A stretch of DNA of 60,036 nucleotides, the filler included, from Hausera hauseri (Eukaryota), in the NCBI GenBank assembly GCA_046269625.1. It is 12 parts of 12 records of this genome, joined end to end, with 100 filler letters (N's around TTAATTAATTAA, not from the genome) between each part and the next. Parts side by side here need not be neighbours in the genome. Positions count along the whole stretch, not along the records: positions 46,628 to 51,088 come from JBJURY010569228.1; 11 more parts are not named here. One strand, given 5' to 3'. Position 1 is the first letter of the stretch. Each line of letters begins with the position of its first letter. Both the position numbers and the translations under genes were made by a program. The notes under the pieces are model-generated. The model saw nothing but the letters and a program-made list of their open reading frames with translations, ran no database searches and was not told the origin of the DNA. Below are positions 22,560 to 57,389 of this stretch, piece after piece.

Positions 22560-23572
22560 TTACGATTTTACGCTGCTTTTTACAATTTTTGGCAACTATA
22601 TAAAATGACGCAACTAATAATAATAAGACAAACGTTGATACTCCAATGGTCGATATAACAGGTAGAGTTAAAAATTCAAATGTTTTTTGTGTTGCTACAT
22701 ATGTAGTAATTGTGTTCTGTACGTCTTTATCTTTTTGTGAATCTGGGTAAATTTTTTCTATTAAAATGTATAAGGTGATTGTTCAATTTCGTTTTCCTGC
22801 TGCATTAATTTGTATTATATATTCTGTCTGAGATTTTAAGGATTTACATTCAATTTGTTGCGTATTTCTTATGAGCACTACTTTTTTGTTTCTTATGTAG
22901 GGTTCGACAGTTTATTTTTATATCGTAGTTTAATCTTTCCTCAACAAAGAATACTATTCTATCCCGATGGATCGAATACCTGATAGGTATGTCTTCAATT
23001 CTTGCTTTACATATATTGTTCGTTGTAACAATTCGAGCGGTCGACCTTTTCGTCGAGGTTTCCATTGGAATTTTCCAAATTCTGTTTTCTGGATAGTAGA
23101 TTTGTAACTGTATACTTAGTTGATTAGGCCGTGTCTCGTATAAATCAAATCTTATTTTGAATTCTTGGTTCACGGGTATTTTACAGCACGGATGTTGCAC
23201 ACCTGCAAGGATGGAACAATATTCTATTTTCGGAGTTAGTCCTAGTGCTATTGCAAACACGATAGTAATTTCCCGACTGACCGTTAGCTCTGTCCGAGTA
23301 TTTACTTGAATACAGTGTCTTTTCTTATTCACAAAGATTGTCTGGTTATTTTCGTCTACTAGTCTTATGTCCGGGTCAGTGGATCGCAATATTTCGTTCC
23401 GTTTTACTTTATGATGCCTATTCCAAACAGGAATAACTAGTTGGAAATGTGGTTTTGTTTCATAAATTTTAGGTAATTTCGGTACGTACAGACGATAGGT
23501 CAGATTATAGGTATGTCCGAAATCTATGTCGCAACATTGCGTACGTTCTCAGGACTCAAAGTCACAATTCTT
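22560..23572 (-). pseudogene. Cys-containing type-I membrane protein (second envelope-like ORF), C-terminal part
   Basis: KNCDFES*ERTQCCDIDFGHTY...HCIQVNT...EYCSI....HPCCKI ectodomain. Hydrophobic LPVISTIGVSTFVLLLLVASF at about 22600-22670 is followed by a basic stretch. Homologous to 46628-47330. Confidence 0.65.
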
Positions 23573-26686: not shown

Positions 26687-28737
26687 TTAATTAAAGATGT
26701 GTCTCTTTTTTCGTTTTCGATTATGGTAGCCAACATGTCGTTCTACATCCGCATTCCATCTACTTTCTTCATAAGCTTTTAGAAATTTTCCGAAAGGTGT
26801 GATAAAAACCGTTAAAATTTTGCATGAAAATCCCGTCAGGCTGAATATCTCATATCCGTTTATAATCACTTGAATTGTTGCTTTAACCACCTGAATTAAA
26901 AAGTAGATTGCTAGGAATCCTGATGCGGCTTGTCCGAATATCGGAAACCTTCCCCAAATTTTATACAATATTTCAGTAGTCACCTTTTGGTAGTAGTTAA
27001 CACCAAGTAACGATTCCCATTTCGCTTGATAACGCGAGTCTTCTAGTATTGTATGCACCGCTCTGTTTAATTCATGCGTCCGTTGGCGTGGAAAAGCAAG
27101 AAATTGTCTAAATGCTTCTACATCTTTCGGTCGATAAATACCTTTTGCGGCGGTATCTTGAAACTTATAGTAGGTTATTCCCTTTATCAAGTTTGTTCGC
27201 GTCAGTTTGGCGGGTGGCGCGATTATGCCACCGTTCAGTAAACTTACCCAATCGGTTTCGCTCTGTCGGAACATTGGCTCGCCTAGGCTGCTCGTGCAAT
27301 CTCTCATAATTGTCGGTTGAGTAGAGTTTGCCAACAATACTCTAGTAATTGGTGTTACTAATCTAGTAGGCTGTTCGACTACATCTTTTTGCGTTTTCGA
27401 GTTAGTATCTATTCTGCTCATGTAACGTTTTCTTGTCATCTCATTAAACTTACGTTCTTTGATCTTAATGAAATTGCAGTCAGTATTACAGCACGTCTTG
27501 ATATATCACTGGAAGTTCCTGTATACACCTCTTCTCTTCCACATTAATGGGTACATCCCTTTTTCATAAATCAGTAGAACTTCTCCAGTCACTCGGCTGA
27601 AAACGCCTTCTTTCATCGGAATTATTGGCGGCGCCATTTCGGGATTGGCATAGATTAAGGCCAACGTGGTTGTCATGACTTCTAAGTCTAATTTGCAGTC
27701 ATTTGTTATCATCTTGTGATATAACTCGACTACTACAGCCTGTCCCTTATAGTAGAAGTAGTCTTCTCTGTTCTTCAAATAATCCTCGATTCGGATATCT
27801 TGAGTATCCAGCTTGAACGTTTTGGCATTAATTTCAGTCTCAGCCACAAAGAATGCTTCATAGTTTGTGGCATAAATTACTACATCACATCATGCAAGTT
27901 CGTCCTTCTTTACGAATTTTAATCCATGAGTATCGGAGATTAATATGGTAGGTGTAGGCTGTTGGACTACATCTTTTCGCGTTTTTGAGCTAGTATCTAT
28001 GCTGTTCATGTAACGTTTTCCTGTCGTCCCATTAAACTTAAGTTCTTTGATCCTGATGAAATTGCAGTCAGTCTTGGCTGGTGGTTCCCAAATTACGACT
28101 GAACTTCTAAAAGCACAGGAGCCGTCTTAAATGTGACACTTTTGGTTTTCCGTATAGAGCTTAGTAACGCTATGAAACATTACTTTTTGTGTGGGCATCT
28201 CAATTTCGTAGAAATCCACAACCACTATGTTTGATTCCAATCCTTTTCCAGTATCGTATTCTGCACAGTTGCAGTGACCTGCTATTTTGTATGCTCTGAT
28301 TATTTTCCCTTGCTGCATTCCTAATTTCATGCTCTCCCATTTCAGCCTGCCTGTCTCTCTGGCCTGTTTATAGGGCTGCCGTTCTAAGTTCGTTGGAATT
28401 AACGGGGTCGTTGGCTTGATTATAAATGAATGCCAATGAATTAATTCACAATGGAAAATACTGCTAGAACGTCGTAACATGCATTCTATCCAATCCAATG
28501 AGACCAATTCTCGTTGCTGGTACAGCATATATCTCTTTTCTTTTTTTTTAATTTATGTGGTCTCGCATCTTTGCACATTTCCAAATACATCAATAAATAC
28601 CGTTGACCAAGCCTGAATTTATCACAGTCATATATTTTAACTGCTCCCATTTGCCGTATTAACATCATCACGGTCAGAAAATTAATTAGCCTGTTTGGTT
28701 CGTTTCCTCGATTATTTCCATTTAAGTTTCGTAACAT
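26687..28737 (-). pseudogene. env: Chuvirus-like (class III, gB-like) envelope glycoprotein
   Basis: Signal-like NFLTVMMLIRQMGA then IYDC; IECMLRRS..FHC..H; AG.C..AEY; LYHKMITNDCKL..EV...LAL...NPE; RVTGEVL; PITRVL; GIYRPKDVEAFRQFLAFP; KIWGRF..FGQAASGFLAIYFLIQVVK...NGYEIF. Collinear with the chuvirus glycoprotein pattern I recognise. Confidence 0.88.
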
Positions 28738-46627: not shown

Positions 46628-47330
46628 GATTTGGCAATACTGTTGATTAGAAGTTGCTTTGCCCTCTCTCAGGAATTGAACCGTGATTACTCGTCCTTTA
46701 ATCAACCGTCTTTTTGTGTTTATTTGGATACAGTTATCTTTTTGGTTTGCTATTATACTCGCTATATTTTCTTCTAACATCCGTTTTAACTGGTCAATGG
46801 ATTAAAAAATGTCTTCCAGCTCTATATTATGATAATCTCCATAAGTTTGTGGTATAACTAAATGTGAATTCAGGTTTATTTCCGAGTGTACTTCATTACA
46901 GTTCGGTAAATATGCATGATAGCTAACGGCATAAAAATGTCCTTATTCTACGTTGCAGCAAGTTGTGTCGTCCTCTGACTTGAATTTACAATCAGACTCA
47001 GCTTGGCTTATTAAGTTATGAATTAATATCCGGATTTGCCCCTCATGCGATCCTGGCAACCTAAACCCGACACATGGGGCTTCTGGCAAAAAGTAGTCTA
47101 ATTTTATTGCTCGTAAAAATTTTTTGTCCTTTTGTTCTGGTTTATGTTGGGGAGTTCACTCTTTTTGTGGCGGCAGCTTTAATCCGATTTTTCTGATTCC
47201 GTATATATCGTTCAACGAATTTTCATCTACCCACCACTGGGCGTTCGATTTAGGTGTTAGGACCGCAATCAACGATAAGGCTACTATTATCTGTGCATAA
47301 GATACTGGTCTAGTGACAATTGAGGAGGTT
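46628..47330 (-). pseudogene. Second envelope-like protein, N-terminal part, fused after integrase
   Basis: After RYNLRPR comes in-frame YAQIIVALSLIAVLTPKSNA/QWW (signal-like), then SDCKFKSEDDTTCCNVE*GHFY and NCIQINTKRRL..GRVITV...QYCQI. Homologous to 22560-23572. Confidence 0.68.
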
Positions 47331-47334
47331 TTAT

Positions 47335-50300
47335 TTTCTCGCGGTCTTAAATTATAGCGTTTAGCTGGTCTTATATCTGTTTTAACTACTCTTTGGATTG
47401 TACGATTTCTTTTCCGTTTTTGTTAACATAGACCGTGGTTGGCGTTGTGCGGACGATTTCATATGGTCCTCTGCCGGTACGTGTTAGTTTCAAGGATGTA
47501 CCTTTCTTCGCGACTGGGTAATGTATATAAACCCAATTTTCTTTTTCCATATCATGGGGTTTAATTTTTTTGTCATATTGCTTTTTGAATTGTTTTTGGT
47601 ATTCGAGTGATAATGTTTTTGCAACTTCCCAACACTTTTGTAATCTTGTCTGCAAGACTTCGGCAAAGTTTTGGTCTAGATTCTGGAGGTTCTTTTCATA
47701 CAGTGTCATACCTAGATCTGTGGGTAAAATTGCTTCTCGTCCATACATCATAAAGAACGGTGTAAATCCTGTTGCTGGATGTGGGTTCGTATTGATTGCA
47801 AACTGTGTCCCTTCTAAGAATTCGGCCCAATTCTTTTGGTCTTTGGCTACCACTGTTGATAGTACACGAATGACCGTTGTGTTCATTCGTTCTACCATTC
47901 CTTGTCATTGGGGATGGTACGCAGTAGTGGTTAAATGTTTGATTTCGAATATCTTAGTGATTTTCTCGAATAATTCGCTTGTGAAGTTCCTTCCTCTATC
48001 CGCTAAGATTTTTTCTGGTGGTCCGTATCTGCAGATGATTTTCCTTATCACTGCATCGGCTAGCGTTTCTGCTTTTTGATCCAGTAGTGCAAATAGTTCG
48101 ACAAAATGCGTTAATCGATCTACGCACGTTAAAATATATCTGTTATTTTTGTGAGCTGTGGGCAAGGGTTCCACTATATCCATGGACATAGCTTGCATAG
48201 GCCTATCTGGTATGCTTATTGGTTTTAACTCTGCTAGGTAGCTTTTTATTTTCTTTTGTTTTTTTGCGCAAACTTCGCAAGCGCCTACCCAGTTCTTTAC
48301 ATAGATATAGATGCTTGGCCAATAATATTTATTTAATATTCTTTCCAATGTCTTCTTCCAGGACATGTGTCCAGCTAAATATGAATCGTGTTCGGCCATG
48401 AGTACTTCGATTCGTAATCCTTTTGGAATAACTATTAGCCTTCTTCCTCTTCGTTCGTAATATAGGATGTTATCTTGGTTTGATGCGCGATATTTATGAC
48501 CGTGTCTCTGTAGGTGTTTCTTGAGTTGTCGCCATTTTGGCATTTTGTCATTCTGTATGAACTCCATGATTTTCTGAATAACCTTGTCTTTAGCCTGATC
48601 ATCCGTAATTTTAATCGTCTTATCCAATATTAGAGTTCTTTGTCGTTCAATCAGTTGTTCGAGCTGAGGCTTCTTTATTGTGGTGATTGCACTCGTTTTT
48701 GTGTTTAACCTTGACAGTGCATCGGCACCGAGATGTTTGTTACCCGGCTTGTATTGGAATTCAAAGATATATCAAGAAATTTCTTGGATCCAACGGATCA
48801 ATCTACATGTTGGATTATTAGCCCGTCATTTCAATGTCGTAACTGCTTTGTAATCGGTTATTATTATAATCTTTTGTCCATAGAAATAGACATTAAAGTG
48901 TCGTAGTGCGTCTTTAACAGCTAACGTTTCTAATTCGGTAACTGAATAATTCTTTTCTGCTTTCTTCAACAAGCGTCCTCCATAGGCTATTGAGTGTTCT
49001 AGTTTTTCATCTTCCTGTTTGTGAGCTAATTCATATCCTATGCCTTCTTTACTTGCATCTGTTTTAATGATAAATTGTAAGTTAAAATCAGGGTATCTCA
49101 GAACCGGTTTGCTCATCAAGATTTTCTTCATTTCGTGGAATGCTTTTGGCTCAACTTCCATCCATTTCCATTTAGTTCCTTTCTTGAGCAGGCGATATAG
49201 TGGTGCATTAATTTTTGAATTGTCTGGTACGTAAGTGGTATAATACCCACAGAAGCCTAACCAATGCCTTAACTCTTTTTGATTCTGTGGTTCGATGAAA
49301 TCAGATATTTTATTTAACAGGGATTTATCCGGTTTTGATCCTCCTTCTCCGACTGTGTCCGAAGTATGATACTGCGTTCTGGGCCCATTTCCATTTCTTC
49401 GGATTTAGTTTCAACCCTGCCTGTTCCAGTCGCATGAGTGTATCTTCAATGTCCTTTAAGTGTTCTTCCTCTGTTTTTGATGCCATTATTACGTCGTCTA
49501 AGTATGCGAATGCATGACCGAGTCCCATAAGCATCTTATTCATCATTCTAGTAAAAATAGCTGGTTCTGTGGTGATGCCGAAGGGCATGACGTTGAATTC
49601 ATATACGTCATTGTGTGTTTTAAACGCCGTTTTATATCGATTTTCGTCCTCGATTTCTACTTAACAGTATCCTGATTGTAAGTCGAGAGTGTTAAACCAT
49701 TTCGCTCCTGATAGTCTGTCTAATGCTTCCTTTACCGATGGTAATGGGAACGAGTCTTTCATCATAAACGTGTTTAATGCCCGGTAATCGATACAAAATC
49801 TATGTTTCGTGGTTCCTTTCTTTTTAATTATAAATATAAGCGAGTACCATGATCGGTAACTTGGTCTAATTATATCGGCCTTTAGCATTCATACTACCTC
49901 TTTAGTTATTTCTTGCCTTAAGGAATGAGGAAGTGGGTACCATCTGGGCATCTTTTGTTCTTCTAGATCGATTTCATCATTAGAGCCAGGTTTCTTCCTT
50001 AATGGAATTGCTAATCTCATGGCTTTGCTCTGCCTATATTCTCTTCCTTTTGTGCGATTATTGAGCGGTATTTACATAGTAATTCACAGAACTTGCAATA
50101 CGCCTCCGGAGAAAATTTGGTTTCCACGTGAGGTGGAAATTCAGCGCATTTGTATGGTTTTTCCTCTATTTTTACTGCTGATACCCTGTAAGTATGCCAC
50201 AAAGTAGTGTTAGCGTACAATTTCACGGGGGTTGGCGCATTGTTTACTAGTCTGATAGGTACACGTCCTGTCGTTACTCTGCATAGAATATTGCTAAACA

Positions 50301-51088
50301 TGAGGCTTGGATCGATTCTCTCTTCGGGTTCAAATTATATTAACAGATCTTCGTCTTGACGAATCTGTGCGAAAATTATCATTTCGGTTCTGGGCGGAAT
50401 GTTTTCATCTACTGGGATCCATACTTCGCCCGGTTTCCTTTCTTTTATTACTTTTGTTCCCTTTATTGGTTCCAGCTATAGTAGTTTTCCGCTATGCAAA
50501 TCAATAACCAGGCCTGGTATCTGTTTTAATACGTCACAACCCCGTACTACATCGTCTGTCAACTGGTCCGTTATCGCAAATTCATGTTGAAGTGCTTGAC
50601 CCATCATATAAATGGTGGGAGTCCATTTAAATTTTGGTTTCGATATTTGTCCAAATGCTCCTACGCTACCCGGATCCGATGATGATGGTAGATATAACTG
50701 ACTCCGTAATGTAGTTGGTATGGATTTGTATTTTATGAATGACTTTTCTGATCCTGTGTCCATTAAAGCATATACTTTCCCATATTCAGTGTATATTTTC
50801 GTAAAAGGTCTTCCTTCTACTACTGTTCCAAAACAATTTAACACCATCTGTGAATTCTTCATAGTAGAAATTCTGTGCCCGCTTATTGTTATTTCTGGTG
50901 ATGAAACGATATTTTCCGTTAGTTTCCTTAACTCCTCGTTAGGGTATAAATTATTACTCGCCATTTCATTGACACGGTTGTCGATGAGTGTTTTTTGCGA
51001 TAGCATACCTGAGATCGAACACAGTTTCGGGTTCTCCCAGATCGTTGAATTTGATTCTATGTTACGAGGTATTCTTTTTGAATATATT
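47335..51088 (-). pseudogene. pol: Ty3/gypsy pol: protease-RT-RNase H-integrase
   Basis: ALMDTGSEKSFI, RFCIDYRALN, MPFG, FAYLDD, KTDAS, HDSYLAGH...CEVC, MDIV.PLP, ADRGRNF, MVERMN, GPYEI. Very similar to 23673-26220. Confidence 0.95.
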
Positions 51089-55281: not shown

Positions 55282-56684
55282 NNNNNNNNNNNNNNNNNNN
55301 NNNNNNNNNNNNNNNNNNNNNNNNNTTAATTAATTAANNNNNNNNNNNNNNNNNNNNNNNNNNNNNNNNNNNNNNNNNNNNAACCCTAAAACATTTTTTC
55401 GTAATTCAAATTCTAAAAAAGAAAAAAATACAAAAAAAAACCCCCATTAAACATTTTAACTCAAAACTTTGGAAAGATTAGTTATATCAACATCTAGCAG
55501 AAGCGTTCATTGAAGAAGAGCATGATTGTTGCAGTTTTAGTGGTACCTGGATCGTCAGTAGCATCTCATGGCTGTGTGAGTGTCACACTGCTTCAGTATT
55601 GTCTAGTAATCGGTGTGATGTCCTTCTAAAAAGTTCTCGAAAAGAACTCTAGAATCATTAAGCAACACAGAACTGGTATAGTTGACCATCAAACGCTGGA
55701 GGAAAGAGTGATGAGGAGATTGGAGCACCTATGGATTTGTCCGGAGTGCAGTGATGATGATTCAGCTCATAACTCAGGTCCTGATGTTTCTAGCAACCCA
55801 CGCCATGGTATATAAACCTTGTGACACACACATGACTGTGGTTGTCTGCTAGTTGAACAACTCGGCTAAAGACTCCTCTTAGTTCATAGTTTCTACCAGG
55901 AGGTATGTTATTTTCATTACTCTACTCTGACTTGGTGAACATATGATTAAGTTTTGCCTCTGTTTAATGTTCTGTATTTAATACCTGTTCATCTATATTA
56001 TCTATTAAAATAGTCGTCCCCCCTCCCCCTACACTTGCTTTGATTTAAAAATATTTTGGAAAATTGTAAAAAAAATTTAATTTAACTCTCTCAAATAATT
56101 TTTATGAAATTAAATTGAGAAAATGAACCTCGAGATTCACGTTTTATATTACAACTCGTGTTCATAATTAAAGCCTGGACACAATTAAAACTTTTAATCA
56201 TGTACTTCTTTTACTAAATTTCATTTGTATCATCTTAATAAATAAACATATAAGTGTATTAGAAAACTGTATTCCTAAATTTGTTTTTCATTAAACACAG
56301 ATGTAAAATTTGGCTTCAATTAAAATGTAAAAGATTAGGTAAAAGTTTGTTTCTTGTTTATCTTATTCTTATATCAGGTATTTGAGGGATTTGAGAAGCA
56401 CCTCTACTTAATAGCAAGAATTTTCATTAGAATCAAATTAAATCAACTTTATTTTCAAATGGATAAGAATTGGGCACACAGGCCCGTCTTACATTCTGCC
56501 CTTTACTCACATCGTTCATACAGCTTGCATTCATTCAGGTACACACCATAACATTTAGTTACATTATCCAGCATGTACAGAACAGCATATCCAGCAAGAG
56601 TCTTATCACTTCTGTTAACTTTCTCTATCCTGTATTGTTCAGCTATCTTTCATCTAGAACTGTATATGTTCTTTGTGTTCACAG

Positions 56685-56820
56685 AGTGGGATCTTGCGCT
56701 ACTGTGGTCCAACTGAATTTGCACCTGGTTTGTGGGCTGGGGTAGAGCTGGATGAATCAGCTGGAAAAAATAATGGCAGTGTTGGAGGAATTAGCTATTT
56801 CAACTGCCCTAACAACTGTG
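56685..56820 (+). CDS. CAP-Gly domain exon (CLIP-family-like host gene)
   Basis: TTCTTTGTGTTCACAG acceptor; SGILRYCGPTEFAPGLWAGVELDESAGKNNGSVGGISYFNCPNNC; GTGAAT donor. Confidence 0.88.
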
Positions 56821-57389
56821 GTGAATCTTTATTGTTGTTTCTCTTTTTCTTTTTTTTTTTTAATTTAAATACGTGTTTCAGTGTCATTTTCTCAGTTGTT
56901 TTAAAAAGGAAAATAAAAATAGTTTTCGTGAAAAAGGATTAGATATTGGCTTATCTCTGTTGTTTTACTCATCACCATTTGTATAAAGGATGCAGAAATT
57001 CATGAGTTTGGATGAAGATTCTCTTGATAAGTGTATTACACAATTATAAATAGTCCCCTTTTATCTTGTAAAATTGATTCCATCACGAAAACGTATATTT
57101 TCAGATAAGTTACAAAGAATTCGTTCGCATCAAAGTTTAGTGCTGGCTGGCACTTGCGTGTTCTGGGTAACTGAAATGTAGGTGTCTACACACTGTCATT
57201 ACTTTGCGAGAACAAGCTTCATATATCAGAGATCAACAAATATCGTATAAGATACATGGGGCTGAAGATGATAAAAGAATATATTTAGCTGTGATCAGAA
57301 TGCCGCTCTTGACGATCTATTACCTATCAGACAAAGGCACTAGGCATATGTCTTTCTCAGTTTTGATGGTGATTTGTAGAGGGGTGGAA

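Follow-up and report, generated by a model that had tools for sequence, protein, structure and literature searches.

A predicted receptor-like membrane protein gene behind the integrase in a decayed family of Ty3/gypsy retrotransposons

The window, by which is meant the whole 60,036-nucleotide stretch of Hausera hauseri DNA analyzed here, is made up of 12 separate contigs of 4.0-6.4 kb each with N spacers between them, and the host is an animal, judged by gene content. The element of interest belongs to a decayed family of large Ty3/gypsy LTR retrotransposon that carries an extra surface-protein gene, referred to as ORF-X, behind the integrase. On contig C10 the pol gene is broken by stops and frameshifts, and its Pfam domains stand in the order PR-RT-RNase H-integrase expected of the GAG-ENV-POL errantiviruses. 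The short motif RYNLRPR, which we take to mark the end of gypsy pol, runs in frame into a signal-peptide-like stretch and a Cys-containing domain that continues on the minus strand to the contig end at 46628, in agreement with the sequence-only reading of this DNA. The linker between the motif and the signal-like stretch is 7 codons, the hydropathy of the latter reaches 3.3 across 11 residues, and cleavage would presumably follow S-N-A. The ORF-X frame of C10 contains three stops in 265 codons (47158-47156, 46945-46943, and 46804-46802), and the other five frames contain 13-30; the C..C..CC cysteine pattern of its first domain is common to the database relative P0003. The features of the locus and of related contigs are collected in Table 1.

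Table 1. Positions in the window of ORF-X, the genes and motifs around it, and the env genes of related elements.
Feature	Position	Strand	Remarks
Contig C10	46628-51088		JBJURY010569228.1; ORF-X piece at left end
Ty3/gypsy pol of C10: PR, RT, RNase H, integrase	47389..51087	-	Pfam RVP, RVT_1, RT_RNaseH, Integrase_H2C2, rve
Frame break, integrase core vs tail	47400..47407	-	copies in the sequencing run vary in length here
Integrase-tail-like stretch IQRVVK...RYNLRPR	47339..47398	-	in ORF-X frame
RYNLRPR motif	47359-47339	-	same frame as signal-like stretch
Signal-peptide-like stretch	47240..47317	-	ends S-N-A before Q-W; matches P0003 N-terminus
ORF-X N-terminal half: signal, charged linker, FN3-like domain 1, start of domain 2	46628..47317	-	cut by contig end
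FN3-like domain 1, approximate limits	46844..47101	-	alignment with P0003 and P0003 model
ORF-X homologue in C5, C-terminal two thirds	22508..23572	-	FN3-like domains, Thr-rich linker, TM, basic stretch
ORF-Y in C5	21559..22464	-	own ATG about 45 bases after ORF-X stop
RING finger (C3HC4), further broken accessory ORF of C5	20240..20557	-	PF00097, E 2.6e-6, above cut-off
PPT in C5	20167-20156	-	purine run directly followed by TGTTA
LTR-like TGTTA...TAACA in C5, 743 bp	20155-19413	-	motif-based limits; one LTR copy present
PBS-like TGGCG in C5	19410	-	
gag-like ORF start after PBS in C5	18933..19091	-	weak match to C9 gag-like piece (E 0.018)
gB-type (Monjiviricetes fusion) env pieces upstream of pol, C6	26690..27889	-	PF24664, E 9e-23 and 2e-8
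gB-type env running into protease in one frame, C11	51827..54640	+	PF24664, RVP

A homologue of the C10 gene had been proposed on contig C5, and the relationship is confirmed (33% identity over 120 residues, pairwise E 2e-21), as is the description of its end, a transmembrane (TM) helix (22647-22591, mean hydropathy 2.4) followed by a basic stretch. The C5 copy has two stops and two frame breaks, and its tail ends L-Y-V-K-I-T-stop. A HMMER profile made from the C10 and C5 pieces and run against 1.84 billion representatives, with a cut-off of E <= 0.001, gave five matches, two of which are true relatives, namely P0003, an intact protein of 479 residues, and P0004, a C-terminal part of 189 residues, both of them single ENA records, from contigs of 4.9 kb and 16.2 kb respectively. 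The others (P0005-P0007) are long repetitive proteins that were rejected as compositional matches after inspection of their sequences. P0003 aligns with C10 from the signal onward (P0003 residues 10-236; 32% identity over 232 residues) and with C5 at 35% and 33% identity down to the TM helix, and because it spans both, the C10 and C5 stretches represent parts of a single type I membrane protein. The family thus assembled has four members that are 31-52% identical in protein. After two domains come a Thr-rich linker and a probable third domain, and beyond the TM helix and the basic stretch the protein closes with a short tail; the signal and the TM helix are the sole strongly hydrophobic stretches of P0003. 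All three C-termini in the family end Y-x-[RK]-I-T-stop, which we take to belong to the class of YxxPhi-type sorting or SH2-binding motifs.

Searches for further relatives were negative. Word-index searches, in which absence is weak evidence, returned no related sequence among 101 candidates for the C5 ORF and P0003 alone among 3335 when P0003 itself was the query. Scans of viral contigs and metagenome contigs for the ORF-X locus gave no match, a PDB sequence search with ORF-X alignment A2 gave 0 matches, and no host protein family was matched at the level of sequence by HMMER, word-index, Pfam, or PDB sequence searches.

For comparison with other copies, contigs were used from the one sequencing run found to contain this DNA, which may be the source sample; no RNA run was listed as containing it. 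Across 893 bases of the ORF-X region, 1010 contigs of the run match with a wide spread of likeness, and the region is therefore repeated; over ORF-X the contig depth, which does not equal copy number, is far below that over pol. Coding constraint on the gene behind the integrase, the absence of which would have told against the earlier proposal, is evident from the comparison of C10 with C5, in which codon identity by position is 0.57/0.64/0.42 over 118 codons, with divergence highest at third positions, and 21 of 40 identical residues are encoded by different codons. Against the run copies, 21 of 37 listed differences in C10 ORF-X are synonymous where 10.9 are expected, a count that is indicative only, since the list (the best-supported 40 of 177 differences, minus three upstream rows) is ranked and not random. 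In ranked lists of the same kind, third positions account for 0 of 12 differences in the integrase and for 2 of 8 in the part that covers domain 2. The weight of the case for constraint is carried by the C10-C5 codon test together with the kept cysteines, signal, TM helix, and tail. These observations also bear on the idea that ORF-X is no more than a piece of a host receptor gene, taken up recently and without function, which the pattern of divergence, highest at third positions, largely refutes; four copies at 31-52% identity have kept the cysteines, the signal, the TM helix, and the tail motif, no host family is matched by sequence, and the idea is scarcely credible.

The position of the gene within the element is given by contig C5, on which ORF-X is succeeded by ORF-Y, a reading frame of about 300 codons with one stop and no Pfam match above noise, and then by the RING gene. 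The combination of a PPT, an LTR with TG...CA ends, and a PBS that is expected of errantiviruses is found as motifs, with one LTR, at 20167-19410. From this context and from the adjacency of ORF-X to the integrase on C10 it follows that ORF-X lies between pol and the 3' LTR, where it is first in a block of cargo genes. The central proposal of the sequence-only reading, that the element carries another membrane protein of no relation to the gB-type env, is thereby upheld, the gene being under coding constraint and the C5 copy standing before ORF-Y, the RING gene, the PPT, and the LTR. A very short LTR just before the PBS of C5, as a second run of purines at 19448 might suggest, was rejected, since the run at 20167 abuts TGTTA and pairs with TAACA at 19413. 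The succession at 19410-20167 of PPT, single LTR-like stretch, PBS, and new gag-like start has the appearance of a tandem insertion sharing an LTR or of a collapsed repeat.

A structural model of P0003 was made from an alignment of four sequences (mean pLDDT 55), and it contains two beta-sandwiches, with pLDDT about 60-85 over residues 61-285. Foldseek searches of the PDB with this model placed FN3 proteins in the top rows, the best at E 1.3e-6, with 281 matches that reach E <= 0.001, and most of the named rows from a viral library were likewise FN3. The best VIA match was fibronectin (Z 9.1, rmsd 2.2 over 84 residues), after which, at Z 7-8, come both cytokine receptors and proteins of cell adhesion with no single family singled out, and the atlas leads for P0003 were FN3/cytokine-receptor-like (0.85-0.87); the atlas gave no usable match for the C5 ORF. 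Domains 1 and 2 are internal repeats with C..C..CC (none of 1000 shuffles reaches their score). The third domain has a weak fn3 match (E 0.12) and, modeled alone, folded poorly (pLDDT 50) with no Foldseek match at E <= 0.001. On these models ORF-X is predicted to carry two FN3 domains, the third being uncertain.

The description of the gene as envelope-like, also put forward in the earlier reading, is not upheld as far as structure goes. The structural check proposed there for the joined C10 and C5 protein, carried out on P0003, gave a fold of FN3 receptor type and no fusogen fold; the predicted tandem FN3 arrangement is that of cell-surface receptors and adhesion proteins. No fusion-protein Pfam match was obtained for ORF-X, whereas the env genes of C6 and C11 match PF24664. 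The motif of a furin-type site is R-x-[KR]-R, and no such site occurs in P0001-P0004, nor was an internal fusion peptide found. By its predicted fold, ORF-X is receptor-like and not a fusogen. Among known proteins it is most readily compared with FN3 receptors such as cytokine receptors, neogenin/DCC, LAR, and Tie2, and with viral mimics of receptors, with which it shares tandem FN3 domains, a single TM helix, and a tyrosine motif in the tail, although identity to these is about 10%, with no match at the level of sequence. The viral proteins that match the model in fold include CyHV-1 ORF129A, from a herpesvirus. Class I cytokine receptors are marked by the WSXWS motif and by the Pro-rich Box1 motif of the tail; the tandem FN3 ectodomain and single TM helix of that class are present in ORF-X (predicted fold), and both marks are absent from P0003 and P0004. 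ORF-X further differs from FN3 receptors in its own C..C..CC pattern and in a very short tail that has no catalytic domain. FN3 is a common fold and is uninformative on the ligand.

The manner in which ORF-X is joined to pol is best seen on C10. A fusion to the integrase had been claimed, and in this copy it can be read directly for the tail-like stretch, which is in the ORF-X frame, but not for the integrase core, which is in another frame with a break near 47400. Judged from the sequence, the break looks like damage in the C10 copy, because copies in the run differ in length at 47400-47407. The tail frame shows a weak match to a natural integrase tail (pairwise E 0.096). From 47480 to the signal-like stretch, C10 has neither an in-frame ATG nor a strong pyrimidine-rich acceptor in phase, and a 300-nt run contig with 50 differences bridges the junction free of gaps, covering the tail, the signal, and the start of the ectodomain. 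Over tail and signal, third positions account for 7 of the 8 differences to copies listed among the best 40 of 177. Related elements have the habit of polyproteins: on C11, a single frame of 413 codons with 3 stops (against 33 and 35) takes env into PR, and on C6, an upstream ORF runs in frame into the env signal with one stop in 439 codons. The same habit is described for the Burro elements (PMC6431247). On the balance of all this evidence fusion is favored, and ORF-X is rather probably made as the C-terminal end of a gag-env-pol polyprotein in the C10 lineage.

Alternatively, ORF-X would be a free-standing accessory ORF with its own or a spliced start, its function being the same as in the preferred explanation, and the open run in C10 would be incidental or specific to that lineage. 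P0003 has Met at positions 1, 6, and 10, the last falling exactly at the start of the signal, with no RYNLRPR-like stretch before it, and from this a free-standing gene may exist or is at least possible. The adjoining ORF-Y has its own ATG, seven run contigs diverge from C10 at 47348, inside the tail motif, and no long pol-fused ORF-X was found by the HMMER profile among the 1.84 billion representatives. A word-index search with the C10 integrase C-terminus, in which absence is again weak evidence, gave 3 related sequences (34-35% identity) among 338 candidates, none of them close or fused. With the start codon and the acceptor both missing from C10, a linker to the signal of merely 7 codons, and a junction that a divergent copy retains without gaps, a free-standing gene is nevertheless the unlikely account, and production as part of the polyprotein is preferred.

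A gB-type env upstream of pol on C6 had been reported, and it is found there (PF24664, E 9e-23). An env in frame between gag and pol, the arrangement of Burro, occurs in the relatives C11 (env into PR) and C6 (upstream ORF into env signal). The 350-residue ORF at 28828-29877 of C6 that is in frame with the env signal includes an AT-hook-like stretch (weak, E 0.18), and the C6 env contains a direct duplication of 122 bp (89%; 27366-27487 and 27954-28075). On contig C9 (41268-46527) a gag-like start is accompanied by a long stretch rich in Arg/Asn/Ser and by unassigned long ORFs that take up about 3 kb; no Pfam matches were obtained, and the end of the contig resembles the beginning of a gB-type env, signal included; this content suggests elements well over 15 kb in length.

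Carriage of both membrane genes by one element has to be approached through comparison. None of the 12 contigs has both, C10 starting about 90 codons before the protease, short of the env position, and C6 ending before the integrase core, and the Logan contigs are shorter than the span that links env, pol, and ORF-X. The pol genes of C10 and C6 had been called very similar; they are indeed alike (71% in DNA, 58-79% in protein), but as sister families, not copies, and above the protease the likeness carries on for about 50 codons, into the region that links env and pol. The pol of C11 is 28-41% identical in protein to that of C10 or C6. Because C10 pol is closer to that of env-bearing C6 than either is to C11, the common ancestor of C10 and C6 had env, and by parsimony on these sequences the C10 element would quite probably also have had a gB-type env. 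It is improbable that the two membrane genes are instead alternatives, with the C10/C5 lineage having lost the gB-type env and keeping ORF-X alone: such a reading draws on the contig ends, on which C10 does not reach the env position nor C6 the integrase tail, and on the two families being no more than 71% alike, and it is opposed by the pol identities, which place env in the common ancestor, and by the persistence of likeness to C6 above the protease, into the linker.

With respect to function, ORF-X is predicted to be a single-pass membrane protein of ~480 residues that by its modeled fold is no fusogen, and the chances are about even that it has a receptor-like binding role at the host cell surface. 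In such a scheme, the fusogen would enter the ER by way of the env signal, and after the env TM helix the chain would again be cytosolic, through PR-RT-IN, until an internal second signal took the FN3 part across the ER membrane. There the FN3 part would be freed by signal peptidase, to be anchored by the second TM helix, and the conserved C-terminal tyrosine motif might steer sorting or bind an SH2-type partner. The ORF-X protein may then bind or decoy a host ligand or a neighboring cell, and it would act within a block of host-manipulating cargo genes together with ORF-Y and the RING gene.

Attachment and fusion are divided between proteins in herpes- and paramyxoviruses, and herpesvirus gB requires partner glycoproteins. 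ORF-X could by analogy be the attachment partner of the gB-type fusogen, the two being cut from one polyprotein in which they flank pol, entering the same membrane one to one, and being found together on the particle. The topology is compatible with a single polyprotein, as is the C11 env in frame with PR, and a stalked beta-sandwich ectodomain on a Thr-rich linker would suit attachment. Related single fusogens of rhabdo- and chuviruses, by contrast, work alone; no copy with both genes is present among the contigs, ORF-X sits in a block of cargo genes, and two relatives among 1.84 billion representatives is a narrow spread for a core entry protein. The gag-env-pol elements are, moreover, described as having three ORFs in the available text of PMC13524379, in which further ORFs were not sought. 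The host-facing, receptor-like role fits the anatomy of ORF-X at least as well as that of attachment partner, and it is preferred because of the cargo-gene setting, the narrow spread, and the receptor fold. Partnership in entry is doubtful, though one-to-one synthesis with env would agree with it; the full arrangement, in which one polyprotein of a reverse-transcribing element yields two surface glycoproteins that form a two-part entry machine, a gB-type fusogen encoded ahead of pol and, behind pol, an FN3 protein that binds a receptor, is more doubtful again.

Several described systems provide a setting for these observations. The Burro/GYPSM1 elements of planarians are giant gypsy-like LTR retrotransposons with a mononegavirus-fusion-like Env in frame between gag and pol, and they resemble the present family in abundant host-like cargo, RING-type and ubiquitin-related domains among it, with accessory ORFs that are separate or within the polyprotein (PMC6431247, available portion). 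They differ in the cargo named in that portion, which comprises AIR1, Smc, MATH, BIR, ankyrin, BCL2, SUMO-like, dUTPase, and midasin-like proteins, with neither an FN3 membrane protein nor a second membrane protein behind the integrase (PMC6431247). Their internal region is up to 25 kb with one ORF of about 4,900 residues, and the contigs here are 4-6 kb; BIR, BCL2, ankyrin, and MATH domains were found in none of the 117 ORFs of >= 85 residues on C5, C6, C9, C10, and C11, which cover the elements in part. GAG-ENV-POL errantiviruses with an HSV/gB-type env are described from Nematoda, Bryozoa, and Platyhelminthes, and their gB-type env precedes PR-RT-RH-IN as on C6 and C11; as far as the available text goes, they have three annotated ORFs, with chromodomains and not membrane proteins C-terminal to the integrase, and the words "fibronectin" and "fused" have 0 occurrences in the main text (PMC13524379). 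A caution is provided by the LTR elements of bdelloid rotifers, in which a post-pol ORF3 with TM and Cys was initially taken for env but turned out to be cargo of another sort, leading to the warning that TM, glycosylation, and cleavage motifs are insufficient for an env call; the ORF3 types listed in the accessible text are F-type env, GDSL esterase, DEDDy exonuclease, and short TM proteins, and "fibronectin" has 0 occurrences in it (PMC5408684). Literature searches, with subscription papers and Repbase outside their scope, yielded no description of FN3 cargo in LTR elements. What is present here is of a known kind, a giant env-bearing gypsy element with host-like cargo, and what appears new is the constrained, receptor-like cargo gene with its predicted FN3 domains.

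Gypsy elements that carry env are usually drawn with a single membrane protein. The lineage described here has retained, to a divergence of about 30% identity, a further surface protein of receptor-like type in which a tyrosine motif is conserved, and this retention points to an action of the transposon at the cell surface other than fusion. Should ORF-X face the host, the cell surface would join the cytosol as a place where cargo interferes with host signaling, a theme familiar from Burro; should it act together with the gB-type env, it would bear on how these class III fusogens find their target cells. P0003 is an intact natural protein with which a host ligand can be sought.

The remaining contigs contain other elements and fragments. 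C2 and C3 (4345-14056) are related at 80% DNA identity and have a Maverick/Polinton-like look, with an rve integrase, what we take by eye to be a Walker A ATPase piece and penton-like ORFs, and TBP-like, dUTPase, and MATH-domain pieces. C1 (1-4244) and C8 (35069-41167), which are 84% alike, represent another gypsy family, env-less in appearance, in which a long ORF of low complexity comes after the integrase, and C1 ends beside what its translation suggests is presumably a PIG-A-like host fragment. C12 includes a fragment of a CAP-Gly domain at 56658-56939 (PF01302, E 4e-20).
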